A stretch of 64,000 nt of DNA from Escherichia phage LF82-9: sequence record PV660452. One strand, 5' to 3'. The translations under genes were made by a program, and so were the position numbers. This document shows, in pieces, positions 1,213 to 40,367 of this stretch; positions within the stretch are counted from its first letter, which is position 1, and every line of letters starts with the position of its first letter. A model generated the notes under the pieces. That model saw nothing but the letters and a program-made list of their open reading frames with translations. It was not told the DNA's origin and did no database searches.

Positions 1213-2901
1213 TTATGAAACAGTCATTACAGTAAATCGTCCAACTTTACTCATCTGAAGATGTTGTCCATAACGTTGAGGGTCATGGTCTCGATGAGAG
1301 ATAATGAACACGTTAGTATTTTGTAAACTTCCAAGAATGGTATCTATAGCCTTAACAGCTTCAGAATCTACAGCGCCGTCAAAAACCTCATCAAGAATCA
1401 ACGTGTTGATTTTAACACCAGAAACTTTTTCAGCAATATCTCGCCATGTAAACAACAATGCGATATCGATACGTGCCTTTTCACCTTGACTAAATGAAGC
1501 ATAACTAAAATCTTCACGACCACGTGATTTTATAGATTCATTGAATTCTTCGTCAATAGAAAACACATAATCAGCTTCCATGATTTTAAGGTAATGGTTA
1601 ATCTGCTTGTTGAACAGAGGCACATATTTTTTAATGATAGCACCTTTAATACCAGAATCTTTTAACATATCTGTTATAATACCACGATGGTATTTTTCAA
1701 GAACGTTATCCGATTTTGTTTTAATGATTTTATCAAGTTCTTTTTGAAGCAAAGCTATCTCATCGGCATGGTCGATAAATTCCGCCGAGGCTTGTTCTAT
1801 TGCAGCTTTAACTTTCTTAGCTTTATCAATAGTGGCAATCATTGCTTGTTTCTTGGTACGAATATCAGATGCAAGGTCCTGTTTAGTCTTAACATTAGCT
1901 CTATATTCGTCCACTAGGACACTCAGATTATCTCTGTGACAGGTAAGTTGCTCGAATGAGTGATTACATTCATGAAGCTTATCGGTAATCTTAGAGACAA
2001 TAGGATCACCCTGGTGCAACTGTGATGCACAAGTAGGACATGTGCCACCGTCATGATACATCTTAATAACTTTGTTGTATGAGTCGATTTTAGATTTAAT
2101 CAAGAATGCTTCTTGTCCTATCTTGTTGAATGCCTCAGTAGGGTCTTCATCAAGAACGATATTAAGTAGTCGCTCATTAGCTTCTTCGATTTCCGCTTTT
2201 AATGAACGAGCTTCTTTGGCTAGGTCGTCATACATATTCTGTAGACGCGCTACATTATCACCAGATAATTTCTTTTGACGTTCGATATTCTCGTTATAAA
2301 TCTTAATTTGTTGGATAACACCATCTTTCTTAGCATCGAGAACTTGTCCCTGGGAATTAAGTTCTCGAACTTGAGACTTATTGATTTTATCCATTTCAGC
2401 GAGTGTGCCGACTTCTAAAAGGTCTTCGACAAGTTTTCTACGAGCAGGGGTGCTAAGAGCCATGAAAGGGGTATACCCTGCCGTCCCAAGCACAACGATC
2501 TGTTTAAAAGACGCGTATGACATTCCGATGCTACGTTCAAATTCTTCTTGGAAGTCACGACTGCTGGCAGATTCATCGAGACGAACACCGTCAACGGAGA
2601 TTTCGAAAATATTGGGCTTTTGGCCTCGTTTAATGAAGTATTTTTTATCATCGAATTCCATCCAAAGCTCAACTAAGAGCTCTTTCTTGTTCGTGCTATT
2701 AATGATTTGTCCTTTCTTAACATCACGAAATGGTTTACCGAAAAGTCCGAAAGTAATGGCTTCTAACATCGTAGATTTACCACCGCCATTTTTACCAGTG
2801 ATTAATGTCTTTTGGACTTTATCTAATTGGATATCAATAGGATTCCCACCTACCGACATGATGTTTTGATAACGAACACGATTTAATTTAAATGATTTCA
2901 T
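1213..2901 (-). CDS. 46: Recombination endonuclease subunit gp46 (Rad50/SbcC-like ATPase)
   Basis: 562 aa; N-terminus MKSFKLNRVRYQNIMSVG and Walker A GKNGGGKST match T4 gp46; coiled-coil middle; C-terminal FIISH motif. Confidence 0.92.
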   Translation of the reverse strand: MKSFKLNRVRYQNIMSVGGNPIDIQLDKVQKTLITGKNGGGKSTMLEAITFGLFGKPFRDVKKGQIINSTNKKELLVELWMEFDDKKYFIKRGQKPNIFEISVDGVRLDESASSRDFQEEFERSIGMSYASFKQIVVLGTAGYTPFMALSTPARRKLVEDLLEVGTLAEMDKINKSQVRELNSQGQVLDAKKDGVIQQIKIYNENIERQKKLSGDNVARLQNMYDDLAKEARSLKAEIEEANERLLNIVLDEDPTEAFNKIGQEAFLIKSKIDSYNKVIKMYHDGGTCPTCASQLHQGDPIVSKITDKLHECNHSFEQLTCHRDNLSVLVDEYRANVKTKQDLASDIRTKKQAMIATIDKAKKVKAAIEQASAEFIDHADEIALLQKELDKIIKTKSDNVLEKYHRGIITDMLKDSGIKGAIIKKYVPLFNKQINHYLKIMEADYVFSIDEEFNESIKSRGREDFSYASFSQGEKARIDIALLFTWRDIAEKVSGVKINTLILDEVFDGAVDSEAVKAIDTILGSLQNTNVFIISHRDHDPQRYGQHLQMSKVGRFTVMTVS

Positions 2902-3152
2902 ATGTATTCTCTTCGAATGAAGTCCTCTACATATTTTAACATGTCATCCCTATCAGCAAAATATTCATCTAGTTCTGCATACATAACAACACCTGGTGCG
3001 TACTCACAGGTAACATACATTGTTCCAAAGAAACGAGGAGTTGATTCCTCGTAATTCTCAGTCCATTCAACGATACCAATATAACCGTCACCAATACTAA
3101 ATTCATGACGATGGATTTCATAATCAGTCTTCGTCATTATACGCATCCTCAA
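2898..3152 (-). CDS. Hypothetical acidic protein (84 aa), translationally coupled between 47 and 46
   Basis: ORF track; 4-nt overlaps with both neighbours. Confidence 0.5.
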   Translation of the reverse strand: MRMRIMTKTDYEIHRHEFSIGDGYIGIVEWTENYEESTPRFFGTMYVTCEYAPGVVMYAELDEYFADRDDMLKYVEDFIRREYI

Positions 3153-3381
3153 TACACGCTTCAGCCATTTTAAGAATAGAGCCAGGAGTATCGTTGTCCA
3201 TTATATTAAAGCTAAATTCAACAGCCCAGTCGGTGCAGACATGAACTGCTTTAACTTCATTGCCTTCAACACGTAATGGCTCAATCCAATACTTGATAGT
3301 GTTCTCGAATCCATCATCATCTTTAACGTCTATTTCAACTTCAAGCCCGAGCCCAGCATTGTTAAATTCATCTAAAGTCAT
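3124..3381 (-). CDS. Hypothetical acidic protein (85 aa) between 47 and 46
   Basis: ORF track; start overlaps the gp47 stop. Confidence 0.5.
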   Translation of the reverse strand: MTLDEFNNAGLGLEVEIDVKDDDGFENTIKYWIEPLRVEGNEVKAVHVCTDWAVEFSFNIMDNDTPGSILKMAEACIEDAYNDED

Positions 3382-29964: not shown

Positions 29965-30246
29965 CTATTTTTCTGAAGCGCCTGAAATATATTTTTCAAG
30001 ACGTTGTTTCATCAGCGAGCCGTTCTTAGCGATTTCTTCCGGTTTATCGCACATACGTAACAAGGCTTCAAGCTTAGCGATATCGCTGGTACGTTCAAAT
30101 TTGCGAGTATCTATCTTACTAGCAAGTTCAGAAATACGTGCTAATAGACTTTCGGCTTCAACCAAAGCTGCACCTAGCTTAGTTGCAAATGTGTCAGTAG
30201 CTTCGTTAAGAATAGATTCTGATAAAAATTCACTATATGTTTTCAT
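29965..30246 (-). CDS. Internal-protein-like with capsid-targeting leader ([11 protein letters not shown]), 93 aa
   Basis: ATG at 30246 overlaps the lysozyme stop (ATGA); leader similarity. Confidence 0.55.
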
Positions 30247-30731
30247 ATATACGCTTTCCAAGTTCCTGTTTTAAATGTTGAGATTACGCGTTTCGCGCGA
30301 TTAGGTGTCTGACGATACCATTTAGATTGGGCGAGATTTACTGCCGCTTCATCCCAACGTTTCTGTTGAAGCATACGAAGAGAATTAGTAAAACCAGCAA
30401 CGCCTGCTACACCCATTTGGAAGACCATATTGACCAATGCACACCGACGAACTGCATCTAAAGAATCATATACCGGTTTAAGTTTAGCATTACCCAAGAT
30501 TCCGCGAACGGCTTTATCGACGTCTTCATTAAATAGCTTTTCAGCCTCATCAAGGGTAATTGTACCGTTGCATTTACGACCGATCATTCTGTCAAGTTCA
30601 GCTTTAGCTACGGCTAAAGACGGGTTCTTTGTTACCAAGTGGCCTATGCCAATCGTCCAAAAGCCTTCAGTGTCTTTGTATAAAGTCAGTCTAAGACCTT
30701 CGTCATTACGAAGCATTTCAAATATATTCAT
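30243..30731 (-). CDS. e: Lysozyme (endolysin) e
   Basis: [32 protein letters not shown]...[22 protein letters not shown] matches T4 lysozyme; SD GGGAGG. Confidence 0.93.
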
Positions 30732-30763
30732 AATACCTCCCACGTTTATAGGAGGTATTTATT
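30732..30763 (-). promoter_or_regulatory. RBS-sequestering hairpin of the lysozyme gene with an embedded late-promoter-like TATAAACG
   Basis: 9-bp inverted repeat AATACCTCC/GGAGGTATT covers the e Shine-Dalgarno; TATAAACG lies in the loop. Confidence 0.55.
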
Positions 30764-30765
30764 AC

Positions 30766-31224
30766 TTATAGGATGGTAGTGAGCACCTTATATAATGATT
30801 TGCCCATTACATATTCCCATTGAGAAGGTTTAATTAAAGCGAATGCATCAAATTCAGGAATCTGTCGTCCGTCCTGGAATGTATGATATGAATTACAAAC
30901 ACTGTTTCTGAATTGCTCGTGCTCTACAGGGATGGTATATAGGAACAGATGAATATTCTTATTGTCTGAGTAATGATGTTCACCTAGGTCTTTCAGGAAG
31001 GCAGGGTCATATTGTGTAAACCCAGTTTCTTCTTCGCATTCACGAATAGCGGCTTCGATAGGAGATTCGCCAGGTTCGACACGGCCTTTAGGAATATCCC
31101 ACCGATGAGCTAATGCACCTTTAGGACGAGAACCAGTTACACGACCCATGAATAATTCTTTATCTTTTGTCATGAAGATAATACCGGCTGATAGTTCTTT
31201 CACTTTATTTTTCTTACTCATCAT
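30766..31224 (-). CDS. Nudix hydrolase (T4 e.1/NudE-like)
   Basis: Nudix box GRVEPGESPIEAAIRECEEETG. Confidence 0.8.
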   Translation of the reverse strand: MMSKKNKVKELSAGIIFMTKDKELFMGRVTGSRPKGALAHRWDIPKGRVEPGESPIEAAIRECEEETGFTQYDPAFLKDLGEHHYSDNKNIHLFLYTIPVEHEQFRNSVCNSYHTFQDGRQIPEFDAFALIKPSQWEYVMGKSLYKVLTTIL

Positions 31225-31465
31225 CTCGGTCCCATGATTTGGCCATTAATTCGGACATAAATTCTTCAATACGCGTTTCTTTAGATGGACTTTCACTATT
31301 AGAGACCGCAAGTTTGTAATCTGCAATAGGACTGAACAAATCAAGGTCCGTATTAAGGTCGTCTTTGATTTTTTCTTCTGACACATCTTTATCATATGTG
31401 TACAGATAACTATCACATGATTCTGATTTAATGTAAATTGCTATACTCATCTCAAATTCCTGCAT
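31214..31465 (-). CDS. Hypothetical acidic protein (83 aa or shorter)
   Basis: ORF track; internal ATG MSIAIY has the better RBS. Confidence 0.45.
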   Translation of the reverse strand: MQEFEMSIAIYIKSESCDSYLYTYDKDVSEEKIKDDLNTDLDLFSPIADYKLAVSNSESPSKETRIEEFMSELMAKSWDRDDE

Positions 31466-31830
31466 TCGGTAATAAAACGTTCAACTTCGTTATTCTTGGC
31501 CTTTATCTTGTCTTTACGTTCCTGTAAACTACTTTTAACAAGATTAATAATGATGCCTATAGTACCTCCACCAATTATACCACCAATTATACTTACGATA
31601 GTAGATGCCAATAAGATAGCGATAATATCTGGTATGGCAAAGGCACTTACTTTAGTACTAAAAAACCATACCGACGGTACAAATATAATCCATCCTGTTA
31701 TCCATTGGCACTTATTGAAAAACTTTTCAAGATCAGCTTGAGTTGTTCGTATTACTTCATCGATAGGTTGATATCCATTAATGTATCTGTTCACGATAAT
31801 ACCTTCGTTGCCATCGTCTATATTAACCAA
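31447..31830 (-). CDS. Hypothetical membrane protein (127 aa) ending in the FITECR junction motif
   Basis: Two hydrophobic helices; C-terminus ...ERFITECRNLR. Confidence 0.5.
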   Translation of the reverse strand: MVNIDDGNEGIIVNRYINGYQPIDEVIRTTQADLEKFFNKCQWITGWIIFVPSVWFFSTKVSAFAIPDIIAILLASTIVSIIGGIIGGGTIGIIINLVKSSLQERKDKIKAKNNEVERFITECRNLR

Positions 31831-31846
31831 TATGTTTTGTTAATCA

Positions 31847-32533
31847 TTACCAGCCTTCCATAGGGAATTCCAGATAAACTTGGGCATTGACGCGAATTTC
31901 ATTGGTAATCTTTTTAACTCGGTCTGTATTACGAGATACACGTCCGAACCAACGCCATCCATTACTAATTGCACGAGAACCAGTGTGCCATGTTTGCCAA
32001 TCAAACTGAAGAAGAGTACGGTCTGGAGCTTCCCATTTCTCTAGTTCACCTTTTTCAATTTTTTCGAGGACTTCTTTGTGCCATTGGCGATAGATAAGTT
32101 CGCCATCAGGAATCTGACTGAACTCTGCAGTTCCTGTTGCAAAATGAGTAGGACACACGTCAGCGTTAACAAGACCAAGAATATGTTCAGACAAATAGCG
32201 AGGATTGTCATAGTCAGGTTGTCCTGCAGTAATAAAATGTTGACCAACCGGAATATCCGGGCGTGGTACATCATCATGGTGATAACCTGGGATAGCAGGG
32301 TACCAACCAGGCATCAGCATGTGGACTCGTGAATCAAATACAACCTGGTCGGTGTTCCAATCATCCGGCAAGTTCATGATGAAGCTGCGAGTAATAGGAC
32401 CGCCGTTATTATAAGCAAATTCTAAACTACAGTTGAAGAACATAGGCTCGTTCTTGATTTTATCATTAGAAATACCGCCGGCAAAACCACCTACTGCACG
32501 AGCTTGACTATTAAACACTTTAGAACTATTCAT
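31847..32533 (-). CDS. Hypothetical protein (228 aa), H/W-rich
   Basis: ORF track; SD GAGGAAAATAAT upstream. Confidence 0.55.
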   Translation of the reverse strand: MNSSKVFNSQARAVGGFAGGISNDKIKNEPMFFNCSLEFAYNNGGPITRSFIMNLPDDWNTDQVVFDSRVHMLMPGWYPAIPGYHHDDVPRPDIPVGQHFITAGQPDYDNPRYLSEHILGLVNADVCPTHFATGTAEFSQIPDGELIYRQWHKEVLEKIEKGELEKWEAPDRTLLQFDWQTWHTGSRAISNGWRWFGRVSRNTDRVKKITNEIRVNAQVYLEFPMEGW

Positions 32534-32534
32534 A

Positions 32535-32840
32535 TTATTTTCCTCGACATTCTTTAATGAAATTTTCTAGATTGGTAGATTCAATAGCTTTTTTACGAGC
32601 TTCTGCATGTTCTTCTTCAGACAATTTACATTTATAATTAACCCAGACGTTATGGTCAAAACTAGTCGTGGCATATAATAACAAAGCCCCGACGAATAAT
32701 AAAAATGGCGATAAGAATACAAAACCAGGAACACCATCCATATCGTAAGCCTTTTGTAATACTGCAACAGAAAGAGCTGCGTAAAAAAGTGATACAAATA
32801 TTGTTAAAAGACCAATTCGGTTGGTTTCTGTTAATTTCAT
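32535..32840 (-). CDS. Hypothetical membrane protein (101 aa) ending in ENFIKECRGK
   Basis: Two hydrophobic helices; shared C-terminal motif. Confidence 0.5.
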   Translation of the reverse strand: MKLTETNRIGLLTIFVSLFYAALSVAVLQKAYDMDGVPGFVFLSPFLLFVGALLLYATTSFDHNVWVNYKCKLSEEEHAEARKKAIESTNLENFIKECRGK

Positions 32841-32868
32841 AATATTCTCCTCATGTTTTAATAGGACT

Positions 32869-32898
32869 ACTATAACATAGTCCTATAATTGTGTAAAC
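32869..32898 (-). promoter_or_regulatory. Early-promoter cassette (GTTTAC; ATAGGACTA/TAGTCCTAT stem)
   Basis: Minus strand GTTTACACAATTATAGGACTATGTTATAGTAGTCCTATT. Confidence 0.5.
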
Positions 32899-32910
32899 AG
32901 TTTTGTGAAA

Positions 32911-33867
32911 TTATTTGAAAGGTTTTACCATATGAAAGTTTTGTTTGAAACGCTTGACGTAATCGTCGTGTCCTAAGCTTTGGTACATACTTACTACTTT
33001 GCTATAATTTTCCCAAGCGAACTCACGGAACCATCCTGATGTGATTGATGTACAGACCTTTTCAAGGGCCATCATAAAACTATCACGTGGATGGATTTCA
33101 AAGTTATTAGGAATCTGAGAACGTTCTAACGCTAGTACACATGATTCTTCGTATACGCCGGCCAATTTGACCATTTCTGGTAATGATTCGAACTTCTCGC
33201 GTGAGGTCATGACTTCAGAACCATCTTTCATATAAAATGTATACGCTGGACGGTCCGTTAGTGCAATGGCTTCGTGAATAGTATCATGGTCATACGTATA
33301 GATGTCATCTTTAAAGAATGCGCTTTTAGAAGTGTCAAGAACTGGGTGAGCATAGTTCAAGGTTTCTTTCTGGCGTTTCAGCATAATTTCATTAAGTTCA
33401 TCGTTCAGTGTAACACCTTTACCACGAAGATACTGAATATGGTTCATAGTCTTTAAAAAGAATGGATTATTTTTCTTGAAACGATGGGACATCTTAATTG
33501 CAAGGCACATCTCAGGAGTTGCCCAGTAAAACCCGTTCAAACGGTCTTTAGTCAAATTTTTCTTGGCGTATTTTAAAAGGTCATAAGAAGACGTGAAATC
33601 TTCAGGAGTGAGTTCACCGACTAATTCACGGACATTAGTGATTGCCGGAACAATATATGCTTCAAAATGAGTTTCGCGCCCATTATGGAAGCATTTGAAA
33701 ACTTGGACATCAGGGTTATCTTGGTGAACATATACACCCATCATTTGATTTTTGAATGCATTCCAAGAACCTTGGTCCGCAATAAAGTCCCAATCACTAT
33801 TTTTAATAGCGCTAGAATCAATAAGACCGTGATAGTGAAGTGCACGAGAACCAATAACTAACATCAT
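32911..33867 (-). CDS. Hypothetical protein (318 aa) with nucleotidyltransferase-like N-terminal motif
   Basis: N-terminus MMLVIGSRALHYHGLIDSSAIKNSDWDFIAD (GS ... SDWDF); spacing longer than canonical, assignment tentative. Confidence 0.5.
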   Translation of the reverse strand: MMLVIGSRALHYHGLIDSSAIKNSDWDFIADQGSWNAFKNQMMGVYVHQDNPDVQVFKCFHNGRETHFEAYIVPAITNVRELVGELTPEDFTSSYDLLKYAKKNLTKDRLNGFYWATPEMCLAIKMSHRFKKNNPFFLKTMNHIQYLRGKGVTLNDELNEIMLKRQKETLNYAHPVLDTSKSAFFKDDIYTYDHDTIHEAIALTDRPAYTFYMKDGSEVMTSREKFESLPEMVKLAGVYEESCVLALERSQIPNNFEIHPRDSFMMALEKVCTSITSGWFREFAWENYSKVVSMYQSLGHDDYVKRFKQNFHMVKPFK

Positions 33868-33895
33868 AATATTTTCCTCGGATTAATTCATTAAC

Positions 33896-34147
33896 TTAAA
33901 TTTCACGACATGCGATATTATATTCATCCCAGAGGTCATCATGTGAAGCCTCTACCAATGGAACGATTGTACCGTTTATGTCTTCATTATAAGGGCAAAT
34001 TGTACAGTGCGCATCTTCGAATCGGATGCCTTTGTGTTCAGATTTTTTATAACGCATATCGAATATCTTTGCAAACTTTTCACGAGTAATGGTTTTACCA
34101 ACCACTTTGGTTCCGATACTTTCGTAATAAATCATTGTGGACTCCAT
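33896..34147 (-). CDS. Hypothetical protein (83 aa)
   Basis: ORF track. Confidence 0.45.
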   Translation of the reverse strand: MESTMIYYESIGTKVVGKTITREKFAKIFDMRYKKSEHKGIRFEDAHCTICPYNEDINGTIVPLVEASHDDLWDEYNIACREI

Positions 34148-34163
34148 TTGTTTTGATAGGACT

Positions 34164-34193
34164 ACTATAACATAGCCCTATCTTGTTGTAAAC
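34164..34193 (-). promoter_or_regulatory. Early-promoter cassette (GTTTAC; ATAGGACTA / TAGCCCTAT stem)
   Basis: Near-duplicate of the cassette at 32869-32898. Confidence 0.5.
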
Positions 34194-34197
34194 TGTT

Positions 34198-34395
34198 TTA
34201 GCAAGAATAACTAGATGATACCCAGCCTTGAACAGTGATACTATTGTGGGATAATGAGATCGCGTCCTGGAGATTCAGACCTGCGTTATCTTCAATCCAT
34301 AATGTAACTTCTTCGCGTTCTTCTGTTGCAATTTGGAACAGGTTTTCCAGAGCAGCTACTGCCGTACGTACAGCACAATCTAATTCACGAGACAT
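34198..34395 (-). CDS. Hypothetical protein (65 aa)
   Basis: ORF track. Confidence 0.4.
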   Translation of the reverse strand: MSRELDCAVRTAVAALENLFQIATEEREEVTLWIEDNAGLNLQDAISLSHNSITVQGWVSSSYSC

Positions 34396-34404
34396 ATGAT
34401 TTCC

Positions 34405-34677
34405 TTAGCATTCCATAGAAGATGCAACCCAACCACCTGATTCGAGGCTGGTGTAATATGAGTGTTGGTTGACAGTGGCCCAATTCGGATTGCCTTGTTC
34501 GGTATAATGCTCAAGTTCTTTTTTCAAGAATCCAGGAGAATAATACGTTCCACCCATACCATAAGCTGGATACAAGTCGAATGTTGTGTTTTGTTTATCA
34601 GCAATTTCTTTGGCAGCCTCAATAGCTGCATAGATTTTTGCTACAGCTTCAGCCAGTTCGGTTTGTTCTTTAGACAT
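34405..34677 (-). CDS. Hypothetical protein (90 aa); paralog of the next gene (shared C-terminus GGWVASSMEC)
   Basis: Both start MSK..., share YYSPG/YYPKG and end WVASS-x-x-C. Confidence 0.5.
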   Translation of the reverse strand: MSKEQTELAEAVAKIYAAIEAAKEIADKQNTTFDLYPAYGMGGTYYSPGFLKKELEHYTEQGNPNWATVNQHSYYTSLESGGWVASSMEC

Positions 34678-34686
34678 AATGATTCC

Positions 34687-34992
34687 TTAGCACAACGCAG
34701 AAGACGAAACCCAAGCACCTTCAGTAATAACGTAACCATTACCTTCACGCTTAACATCGCCACCATTATTTTCAATTTCATCTTTCATCCACTGGGATAC
34801 GATTTCACCCTTAGGATAATAAGTACGACCGCTACCATAATCACCTACAGAAAACGATACAGCGTATTGGTCTGCAATCTTTGTAGCTTCTTCTTCGATA
34901 CGTTCAGCTTGATTCAGAAGTTTATAAATTGCATCTGAAGCGGATTTGGCATCATTAAACTCTGGTACTTTAATTTCAATAATCTTACTCAT
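34687..34992 (-). CDS. Hypothetical protein (101 aa); paralog of the previous gene (C-terminus GAWVASSALC)
   Basis: Shared N- and C-terminal motifs with 34405..34677. Confidence 0.5.
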   Translation of the reverse strand: MSKIIEIKVPEFNDAKSASDAIYKLLNQAERIEEEATKIADQYAVSFSVGDYGSGRTYYPKGEIVSQWMKDEIENNGGDVKREGNGYVITEGAWVSSSALC

Positions 34993-35348
34993 TTTCTACA
35001 TTCCTTAATAAAGTTTTCTATTGTTTCATTTTCACGTCTAGCTAGGAGTTCATTATAACTAATCATTTGAGAAGCGTAAACCTTTTTATTTTTCTTGTTA
35101 TGGTTTATAAAATCGTAGTAAAAATAGACTACAGTACAAAATGATGCGATGGATGCAAAGGCTTGAGTATATCGTAAGTCCTGCCATTGGTCTGTGAATC
35201 CACCGGTGTTCCCTATAAATCCTAACACAACTCCGTCAATAAGAAATCCAACTAATCCAAAGGCAAATCCCATGCCAATACTCATAATAAAAATTAGAAT
35301 GTTCTCACCGAGAGAAGGCCGTACGGTTAAGAGTTGAGGCTTTTGCAT
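34989..35348 (-). CDS. Hypothetical membrane protein (119 aa) ending in ENFIKECRK
   Basis: Two hydrophobic helices; shared C-terminal motif. Confidence 0.5.
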   Translation of the reverse strand: MQKPQLLTVRPSLGENILIFIMSIGMGFAFGLVGFLIDGVVLGFIGNTGGFTDQWQDLRYTQAFASIASFCTVVYFYYDFINHNKKNKKVYASQMISYNELLARRENETIENFIKECRK

Positions 35349-39419: not shown

Positions 39420-39496
39420 TGGTCAGGGTGAAAGGATTCTAACCTTTAACCTGCGGTTTAGAGGACCGCTACTCTATACAATTGAGTTACACCCCG
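39420..39496 (-). tRNA. tRNA-Arg (anticodon UCU)
   Basis: Manual cloverleaf: anticodon stem GCGGT/ACCGC, loop CCUCUAA, T-arm AAAGG-TTAGAAT-CCTTT, encoded CCA. Confidence 0.7.
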
Positions 39497-39622
39497 TAAT
39501 TAGTTCACAGCAATACCTACTCCAACAATCAAGATGTCTTCACACGAAATTAAGAGAAGTGTGATCAGTTCAACCCCTATAATCGCGTCAAGTAGATATT
39601 AATGTGACAGTTGTCACAAGTT

Positions 39623-39697
39623 TGGCGGACATGCATGGATTCGAACCATGGACCAATTGATTAACAGTCAACTGCTCTACCACTGAGCTACACATCC
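39623..39697 (-). tRNA. tRNA-Asn (anticodon GUU)
   Basis: Manual fold: D-arm GCTCAGTGGTAGAGC, anticodon loop CUGUUAA, T-arm CATGG-TTCGAAT-CCATG, encoded CCA. Confidence 0.65.
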
Positions 39698-39701
39698 AAA
39701 T

Positions 39702-39788
39702 TGGTGGGGAGTGGTGGAGTCGAACCACCCGAGTCGCAATGACAATGAATTTACAGTCCACACCGCTACCTCTACGGGATAACTCCCC
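39702..39788 (-). tRNA. tRNA-Tyr (anticodon GUA), long variable arm
   Basis: 87 nt; acceptor GGGGAGT/ACTCCCC, anticodon loop CUGUAAA, T-arm GGTGG-TTCGACT-CCACC. Confidence 0.55.
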
Positions 39789-39794
39789 TTAATT

Positions 39795-39869
39795 TGGTGG
39801 CCCTGGGTGGAATTGAACCACCATCTGGCGATTATGAGTCGCTTGCTTGAACCTTCCAGCTACAGGGCC
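39795..39869 (-). tRNA. tRNA with CAU anticodon (Met or lysidine-modified Ile)
   Basis: Acceptor GGCCCTG/CAGGGCC, anticodon loop CUCAUAA, T-arm GGTGG-TTCAATT-CCACC, CCA encoded. Confidence 0.65.
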
Positions 39870-39870
39870 T

Positions 39871-39946
39871 TGGTGCTGATTAACGGAATCGAACCGCCGA
39901 CCTTCTCATTACAAGTGAGTTGCTCTACCTACTGAGCTAAATCAGC
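39871..39946 (-). tRNA. tRNA-Thr (anticodon UGU)
   Basis: GCTGATTTAGCTCAGTAGGTAGAGC...CUUGUAA...GGCGG-TTCGATT-CCGTT; matches T4 tRNA-Thr architecture. Confidence 0.8.
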
Positions 39947-39951
39947 AAAAC

Positions 39952-40041
39952 TGGCGGAGGCGATAGGATTTGAACCTATGAGTCGCCGGAGCGACTGCCG
40001 GTTTTCAAGACCGGTGCATTAAACCACTCTGCCACGCCTCC
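39952..40041 (-). tRNA. tRNA-Ser (anticodon UGA), long variable arm
   Basis: GGAGGCGTGGCAGAGTGGTTTAATGCACCGGTCTTGAAAACCGG... matches T4 tRNA-Ser. Confidence 0.85.
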
Positions 40042-40043
40042 AG

Positions 40044-40117
40044 TCTCCATACAAGGATTTGAACCTTGGACCTCCTGATCCCAAATCAGGCGCTCTACCA
40101 AACTGAGCTACACGGAG
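40044..40117 (-). tRNA. tRNA-Pro (anticodon UGG); 3-prime CCA not encoded
   Basis: Anticodon stem-loop CCTGA-TTTGGGA-TCAGG; T-arm CAAGG-TTCAAAT-CCTTG. Confidence 0.75.
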
Positions 40118-40127
40118 TAAATTAAAT

Positions 40128-40201
<74 letters not shown>

Positions 40202-40206
40202 AAATT

Positions 40207-40293
40207 TGGTGCGAGAAGTGGGACTCGAACCCACAAGGAAATCATTCCGCAGCATTTTAAGTGCTGTGCCTTTACCAATTTGACCATTCTCGC
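40207..40293 (-). tRNA. tRNA-Leu (anticodon UAA)
   Basis: GCGAGAATGGTCAAATTGGTAAAGGCACAGCACTTAAAATGCTGCGG...GGGTTCGAGTCCCACTTCTCGCACCA matches T4 tRNA-Leu. Confidence 0.88.
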
Positions 40294-40294
40294 G

Positions 40295-40367
40295 CTGGGA
40301 ATAAAGGACTCGAACCTTTGCATCCTGGAATCAAAATCCAGTGCCTTACCAACTTGGCTAATTCCCA
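40295..40367 (-). tRNA. tRNA-Gln (anticodon UUG); CCA not fully encoded
   Basis: TGGGAATTAGCCAAGTTGGTAAGGC...CTGGA-TTTTGAT-TCCAG...GGTTCGAGTCC resembles T4 tRNA-Gln. Confidence 0.8.

Follow-up and report, generated by a model that had tools for sequence, protein, structure and literature searches.

A putative nucleotidyltransferase of large virulent phages and the small acidic proteins encoded upstream of it

What kind of enzyme is encoded by an ATG-started open reading frame (ORF) of 318 aa in Escherichia phage LF82-9, and on what might that enzyme act? The DNA analysed is a stretch of 64,000 nt from sequence record PV660452, taken as one strand and called the window below; the genome is of the T4-like Mosigvirus type. 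The gene lies at 32911..33867 on the minus strand. These are exactly the coordinates of an initial annotation of the window, which did not state the strand, and the N-terminus quoted there, MMLVIGSRALHYHGLIDSSAIKNSDWDFIAD, is that of the protein. The product, here termed the transferase, consists of the Pfam domains DUF7277 and DUF7275 and belongs to PHROG 2141. Escherichia phage LF82-1 has a hypothetical protein of the same sequence (100% identity), and gp251 of the Mosigvirus p000v matches it at 98% identity. The answer proposed has three layers: a nucleotidyltransferase (NTase), a module formed with small proteins that share a C-terminal tail, and modification of a serine in that tail. As a whole the explanation is offered tentatively, and its layers are given in order of falling certainty.

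Fold and domains of the transferase

The N-terminal part of the protein (approximately aa 1-105; 33553..33867, minus strand) has the properties of a Pol-beta-type NTase core, and DUF7277 spans aa 2-101 of it. The sequence reads G6-S7 (codons GGT TCT; 33847..33852, minus) as the hG[GS] motif and D25-W26-D27 (GAT TGG GAC; 33787..33795, minus) as the [DE]h[DE]h metal-binding motif at the start of beta2. The candidate for the third catalytic carboxylate is E69 (GAA; 33661..33663, minus), placed by its position on a modelled strand, 64-73. A GS...DWDF pattern had been pointed out in the initial annotation, and conservation puts it beyond chance: among 85 distinct homologues, taken from 88 loci, G6, S7, D25 and D27 are each found in 84. 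The position of E69 holds E in 76 homologues and D in three, and is therefore acidic in 79 of the 85, such that all three acidic residues for which a check had been proposed are conserved. The spacing is longer than canonical, as was also said at the outset; 17 residues separate S7 from D25, versus the 9-13 that are usual between G[GS] and the carboxylate. The extra residues form a loop after helix 7-12. This is a variation in length, and the motif is not lost.

Structure prediction had been named beforehand as the analysis by which an NTase fold could be refuted. The AlphaFold2 model, built from a 40-sequence alignment, is confident (mean predicted local distance difference test, pLDDT, 91.5; predicted template modelling score, pTM, 0.86) and displays the fold. 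The modelled N-terminal topology is that of Pol-beta: strand 2-5, G6-S7, helix 7-12, a loop, strand 26-31, helix 32-41 and three strands. I5-G6-S7 follows strand 2-5, D25-W-D27 opens strand 26-31, and E69 is on the last strand. Foldseek independently gives as top matches 5uvd (NTase-like protein), MenT1 and TM1012, with probabilities of 0.99-1.00 and modest E-values (2e-3 to 6e-2), and the alpha/beta core can be superposed on known members of the Pol-beta superfamily. The metal site of the core, with hG[GS], DxD and a third carboxylate, is intact and conserved. It is highly probable from sequence and model that the transferase is a catalytically competent nucleotidyltransferase of the Pol-beta superfamily, with a minimal core like that of MenT1 and ANT (aa 1 to ~145) and the phage-specific helical DUF7275 appended.

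The protein had been described as possibly antibiotic-NTase-like or AbiEii-like. This is apt in so far as the nearest structural neighbours are of those classes, but membership by sequence is unsupported, as no Pfam, NCBIfam or PDB sequence match was obtained. The Pfam scan at E<=10 gives DUF7275 and DUF7277 only, so that AbiEii/DUF1814 (PF08843) is rejected at the sequence level. The same scan has no RlaP or PolyA_pol profile match, and an RlaP or CCA-adding enzyme was also set aside. Nor do NCBIfam, which has no match to the transferase at all, and Pfam connect it with an antibiotic-NTase family; the likeness is at the fold level only. PDB searches with the single sequence and with a 40-sequence profile do not find the MenT chains, and their sole match, to PsaB on 'GWFRE(Y/F)AW', is spurious. 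The PADLOC defence models gave nothing beyond a weak match to Cas8b (E 0.008, 13.5 bits), which is regarded as chance.

The remaining ~280 residues had been considered an unknown domain. Most of this region is already catalogued as DUF7275 (aa 120-305, E 2e-79; 32953..33510, minus strand), as is the N-terminus as DUF7277 (aa 2-101, E 9e-28), and scores of 97.2 bits for DUF7277 and 266 bits for DUF7275 place the protein well within both families (gathering cut-off 27). The description stands to the extent that the DUF7275 entry carries no function. PHROG 2141, which the transferase matches at E 1.6e-150, is likewise of unknown function, and a literature search with the DUF7277, DUF7275 and PHROG identifiers and related concepts found nothing on the family. 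DUF7275 is modelled as an all-helical domain and has no solved structural relative.

Conservation is higher in DUF7275 than in the catalytic core. The conserved residues are K125-x-x-H128-R129, K139, H174, D193-H194-D195-x-x-H198, E240-E241, E248-R249, K270 and S274-x-T276-S277-G278. Those invariant in 85/85 homologues include K125, H128, K139, E240, E241, E248, R249, S274 and G278; H174, H194, D195, H198, K270 and C272 are among the near-invariant ones. An HD-domain phosphohydrolase was considered for H128...H194-D195 and rejected, as an HD fold with an H...HD...D site was not found. Since 145 residues align to MenT1, the first helices of the C-terminal region, the K125 helix included, are probably part of an extended NTase module. 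K125 is on the post-core helix of the model and may match the motif-III lysine of MenT toxins (K137 in MenT1), to judge from the modelled secondary structure and the published description (PMC10435456). Position 143, approximately 15-18 residues further on and a possible counterpart of the motif-IV aspartate (D152 in MenT1), alternates between D and H.

The family is large, with 2,241 matches at the 90% cluster level and 1,599 representatives at 50% identity, 569 of these at E<=1e-30. Nearly all members are ~300 aa in length and have both domains. They are found in 733 phage records, and the hosts include Escherichia, Acinetobacter, Aeromonas, Pseudomonas, Vibrio, Klebsiella and Enterobacter. 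The phages are T4-like, rV5-like, Otagovirus, Phapecoctavirus and jumbo phages, and there are short forms in Streptomyces and Gordonia phages. A scan of 185,579 prokaryotic species, one genome per species, gave five transferase loci only, all of them on contigs of 2-167 kb from metagenome-assembled genomes (MAGs) that resemble phage DNA. The family thus appears to be essentially phage-restricted, within the sensitivity of a pattern scan. Database names of homologues are inconsistent: 'prohead assembly scaffold protein' in Klebsiella phage vB_KpnM-VAC36, 'HNS-dependent expression A' in a third party annotation (TPA) record, and 'putative nucleotidyltransferase' in Acinetobacter phage Abraxas (orf067; locus L005, 4662-5615). 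Of these names, 'putative nucleotidyltransferase' alone is consistent with the fold.

Linkage to small acidic proteins

Upstream of the transferase gene and on the same strand are three tandem paralogues that encode small proteins: tail protein 1 of 65 aa (34198..34395, minus; PHROG 4882), ending ...QGWVSSSYSC, tail protein 2 of 90 aa (34405..34677, minus; PHROG 899), ending ...GGWVASSMEC, and tail protein 3 of 101 aa (34687..34992, minus; PHROG 899), ending ...GAWVSSSALC. They share the C-terminal tail W-x-[SA]-S-S-x-x-C-COOH, which is carried by no other ORF of the 64-kb window, and their bodies are variable and helical.

An iterated profile (hidden Markov model, HMM) over the 88 loci defines 189 such small proteins of 61-160 aa, of which 185 end in Cys. 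The consensus has an N-terminal helix (...AE.IADE...F), a YG.G.tYyP segment, an acidic stretch and G.W.SSS..C-stop. In the tail, W(-7), S(-4) and C(0) do not vary, and S(-3) hardly does. A locus encodes between one and six paralogues, and the median isoelectric point (pI) is 4.4, compared with 6.3 for the transferases. A search with the simple tail pattern adds proteins with other bodies, for example a 'double-motif' subfamily that has an internal F-x-D-W-x-S-S-C-Y-G-E and a terminal W-x-[PSA]-S-S-C. The ORF directly upstream of the transferase gene, of 83 aa (33896..34147, minus; PHROG 3723 by PHROG match), clusters with this subfamily by BLAST single linkage; it is divergent and has lost the Cys tail. 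It has F-E-D-A-H-C-T-I-C in place of the internal motif and ends ...NIACREI. The tail family has no Pfam match, PHROG 899 and 4882 are of unknown function, and the literature search found nothing on it. PDB matches are to designed helical bundles only, which is attributed to compositional bias.

The gene association is the second main observation, and the initial annotation does not mention it. When the neighbours in the window were compared by tblastn with six distant phage loci, only the small upstream ORFs recurred beside the transferase. Tail ORFs number 225. In 219 cases the ORF is upstream of the transferase gene, has the same orientation and is no more than 3.5 kb from it; the midpoint of 127 of the 219 is within 1 kb. 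Five are downstream, although the DNA searched was comparable (673 kb upstream, 666 kb downstream). Transferases clustered at 60% identity by single linkage form 20 lineages, and an upstream tail protein is present in 80/88 loci and in 18/20 lineages. The two lineages that have none are the short forms of actinophages. No other neighbour family is common to more than four lineages; the tail family is found in 17, and the next real family in four. The linkage is independent of lineage and specific in order and strand.

Other neighbours were considered and set aside. A second 'conserved' family, seen in 15 lineages, consists of antisense ORFs within the transferase gene (window 33274-33456 and 33667-33861, plus strand; locus L001, 6412-6594). 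It appears conserved because the transferase coding sequence on the other strand is, and it does not represent a gene. A 228-aa ORF, membrane ORFs and a nudix gene are not kept with the transferase outside close relatives. Adjacency to tRNA genes is too weak to serve as a functional clue, as these are within 8 kb in only 6/20 lineages, mostly by shared synteny.

Further samples show the same pairing. It is present in 5/5 of the MAG loci, which constitute an independent sample. A reverse look-up that started from two metagenome tail proteins found a DUF7277+DUF7275 gene 0.5-1.2 kb downstream on the same strand wherever the contig was long enough. Two tail subfamilies searched by tblastn against 50,697 phage records were found in 391 and 324 of them, in the same genera as the transferase. 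There is no Tequatrovirus among the tail-subfamily matches listed, and the transferase is likewise missing from the T4 region examined. No earlier description of the pairing with C-terminal-Cys tail proteins was found in the literature searched.

The actinophage short forms are Streptomyces phage Beuffert gp203 (251 aa; locus L007, 4878-5633) and Gordonia phage Lozinak gp16 (263 aa; locus L008, 3809-4600). Their N-domain is cut down, with hhGS...DxD retained, and there is no tail protein nearby. Both lineages deviate at DUF7275 positions that are otherwise invariant, i.e. R129, T140, R165, Y172, H174, P175, C272 and S277; the substitutions are R129S, T140H, Y172K, H174K/V, P175V, C272I and S277K. 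One of the two loci is 1.2 kb from a tRNA cluster and the other is near an annotated RNA ligase gene.

Candidate acceptors

On balance the transferase probably forms a functional module with the small acidic proteins of the genes just ahead of its own. We infer from sequence a physical interaction between transferase and tail, as well as the acceptor, the nucleotide used and the biological role. DUF7275 would dock the invariant tail and present it to the transferase site, where the enzyme would move a nucleoside monophosphate (NMP) from a nucleoside triphosphate (NTP) onto a serine hydroxyl of the tail, i.e. a protein O-nucleotidylylation. A set of small early proteins that have diversified, plausibly effectors of host takeover or of anti-defence, might in this way depend on one enzyme for maturation or arming. 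That the tail is docked by DUF7275 and that its serine accepts the NMP is the guess to which we commit ourselves, and as a guess it is a doubtful one.

Several properties favour a tail serine as acceptor. The bodies vary, the tail is kept to its last residue and a locus has one to six paralogues; the tail therefore looks like a recognition tag on client proteins, or substrate, rather than like part of an antidote. Within the enzyme, conservation is highest in DUF7275, which is not the catalytic part. ANT(2'') and LnuA, which are close structural neighbours, adenylylate hydroxyls of small substrates. The enzyme is near neutral (median pI 6.3) and not basic, as tRNA binders usually are. In addition, the two lineages that have no tail protein are those that deviate at the otherwise invariant DUF7275 positions. 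The wider proposal, that virulent phages have an enzyme-and-tag system in which a single NTase/DUF7275 enzyme covalently modifies diversified small effectors on a W-x-S-S-x-x-C-COOH tag, is somewhat unlikely; if true, it would amount to a novel way for phages to mature or arm proteins during infection. A version that goes further is highly improbable: Ser-O-nucleotidylylation would activate the serine for elimination, and the terminal Cys would then close a lanthionine-like S-x-x-C thioether ring with the assistance of His and Cys residues of DUF7275.

Some evidence weighs against modification of the tail serine. The target of MenT1, to which the structural match is best, is the tRNA 3' end and not a protein, as it is for MenT3 and MenT4, and the small helical protein whose gene precedes that of MenT1 inhibits the enzyme and is not its substrate (PMC10435456). 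Gene linkage has no direction, and a substrate, a regulator, an adaptor or a co-effector would all fit it. Many of the 88 loci are from related phages, so that locus counts overstate independence and the lineage count of 18/20 is the fairer figure. The genes do not abut in enteric T4-like phages; an ORF intervenes, and the nearest gene for a tail protein is at a distance of 0.3-1.3 kb.

It should be asked, then, whether the enzyme is an RNA 3'-end nucleotidyltransferase of the MenT type that extends tRNA acceptor ends, or the 3' ends of other RNAs, by nucleotide addition. Host tRNAs might be crippled for a takeover of translation, or damaged 3' ends rebuilt as a form of repair, and the upstream acidic proteins would be MenA1-like inhibitors or regulators that plug the active site. 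This would fit the best structural match, and K125 appears from the model to be on the helix where MenT toxins have the motif-III lysine. MenA1 is a 68-aa helical protein that is encoded upstream of MenT1 and blocks its active site (PMC10435456), and gene order, partner size and helicity are analogous here. There are also two weak echoes, tRNA genes within 8 kb in the 6/20 lineages (5.5 kb away in the window) and, in two distant phages, genes for RNA ligase or polynucleotide kinase in the vicinity. Still, we consider this reading unlikely. DUF1814/AbiEii membership by sequence is lacking, residue 143, the would-be motif-IV aspartate, varies between D and H, and the transferase is not basic. 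The proximity to tRNA genes is weak and mostly reflects synteny inherited within one lineage. A role as inhibitors leaves unexplained why a locus may have as many as six paralogues, which vary in their bodies and keep the tail to the last residue, and a toxin together with its antidote would be of little gain to a virulent phage.

The tail proteins might instead be interchangeable targeting subunits, the variable bodies binding different targets, the constant tail recruiting the enzyme, and the acceptor being a host or phage macromolecule. The linkage data are the same for such adaptors as for substrates, and a variable body with a constant tail in several paralogues fits both equally well. 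However, no target is known, and the Ser-Ser and the final Cys, which are invariant, would suggest reactive groups more than a pure docking peptide; the adaptor model is accordingly regarded as improbable. Very little weight is given to a small-molecule nucleotidyltransferase of the ANT(2'')/LnuA type, by which the hydroxyl of a metabolite, a signalling nucleotide or an antibiotic-like compound would be adenylylated while the tail proteins were merely co-inherited. The large conserved polar set in DUF7275 (His, Asp, Glu, Cys, Ser) might form a pocket for a small ligand, but a tail-protein linkage that is independent of lineage and specific in strand and order would have no explanation, and there is no sequence relationship to any antibiotic NTase family.

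Neither the transferase nor its partners have a function on record. The transferase family, at 1,599 clusters at 50% identity, is large and is almost confined to big virulent phages, several groups of which are used in phage therapy. If the enzyme does modify the tail proteins, it would represent a new post-translational system in phage early gene expression, and the C-terminal tail would be a rule by which client proteins can be spotted. If instead it modifies tRNA in the manner of MenT, phages would have their own counterpart of a bacterial toxin family. The module recurs widely among phages that matter in medicine and ecology, and the proposals can be tested by simple co-expression, mass spectrometry and labelling.

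Genomic setting and known systems

The transferase gene was correctly placed by the initial annotation in a lysozyme-tRNA region. On one side are the lysozyme gene e (30243-30743) and the nudix gene nudE (30766-31224), and on the other, 5.5 kb away, is a cluster of ten tRNA genes (39420-40367). Lysozyme e is adjoined by a small ORF (29965-30261, minus strand), the p000v counterpart of which is annotated as an internal head protein; its N-terminus resembles what we take to be a T4-type capsid-targeting leader.

A promoter cassette of its own, which had also been attributed to the gene, was not found. The gap between the transferase ATG and the stop of the upstream 83-aa ORF is just 28 nt and contains a ribosome-binding site, GAGGAA (33874..33879, minus), 6 nt ahead of the ATG, and no promoter-like site. 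The nearest candidate promoter for the 83-aa ORF and the transferase gene together is a sigma-70/T4-early-like site, TTTACA-17-TATAGT with TG, at 34164..34192 (minus), which has 10/12 matches in a consensus scan and is a pattern match only. A second, near-identical site (TTTACA-17 nt-TATAGT, preceded by TG; 32869-32897, minus) precedes the membrane ORF downstream of the transferase. Such T4-early-like sites on the coding strand suggest early expression, as far as a pattern match can.

The statement that membrane-protein genes flank the transferase is half right. The 101-aa ORF just downstream (32535-32840) has two hydrophobic segments, but the 83-aa ORF upstream has none; further small membrane ORFs are present farther out on both sides. 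The 228-aa ORF (31847-32533, minus), downstream of the transferase, matches PHROG 1843 (E 1e-95) and has no Pfam match. It contains a His/Asp-rich stretch, PGYHHDDVPRPD, and is kept in close relatives only, not beside the transferase in distant phages.

T4 has counterparts of the flanking genes e.3, e.4, e.5, e.6 and nudE, but neither the 318-aa transferase gene nor tail-protein ORFs in the syntenic interval. From the e.3-like ORF (34989-35348) to nudE the window is replaced relative to T4 (window 31214-35000, T4 locus 2036-3320). The T4 interval between e.3 and nudE holds e.2 only, whereas that of the window has ~3.8 kb of other genes: the three tail proteins, the 83-aa ORF, the transferase, the membrane ORF, the 228-aa ORF, a 127-aa membrane ORF and another 83-aa ORF. 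To judge from this sequence comparison, the interval is an insertion in a plastic region.

Of the systems known, the one that most invites comparison is MenT1 (Rv0078A) of the MenAT1 toxin-antitoxin system of Mycobacterium tuberculosis. Both enzymes have a minimal NTase core followed by helices with a conserved lysine, and in each case the gene of a small helical protein precedes that of the enzyme on the same strand (PMC10435456). The differences are considerable. Sequence identity is 8-10% and there is no profile match; MenT1 has T-x-D where the transferase has D-x-D; and MenT1, at 195 aa, has no equivalent of the ~170-residue DUF7275 remainder. MenA1 is unrelated to the partner found here, which is a multi-copy family with an invariant tail, and the context is a bacterial toxin-antitoxin locus in one case and a virulent phage in the other. 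The AbiEii/DUF1814 toxins (MenT3/TglT, MenT4) differ in that the transferase has no PF08843 match at E<=10 and no antitoxin of the AbiEi/COG5340 type is present. ANT(2'')-Ia (AadB) and LnuA have no sequence relationship to it; they are much smaller, consist of a single module, act on small-molecule substrates and have no partner proteins.

In the MNT-HEPN type VII toxin-antitoxin system, a minimal Pol-beta NTase AMPylates a genetically linked partner, the acceptor being a tyrosine of the toxin. The idea is the same as the one proposed here, namely that a minimal Pol-beta NTase nucleotidylylates a linked partner protein. However, the best structural matches do not include MNT, the tail proteins are not HEPN proteins, and the acceptor would be a serine, by hypothesis. 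Other Pol-beta-superfamily NTases of phages are RlaP and the CCA-adding enzymes of jumbo and T4-like phages, which are linked to RNA repair (PMC7824862). The transferase differs from these in having no corresponding Pfam match at E<=10, and an RNA ligase gene is near it in only one of the distant loci inspected. Relative to all these systems, the catalytic fold of the transferase is known, and what is new is the domain appended to it and the conserved family of partners.

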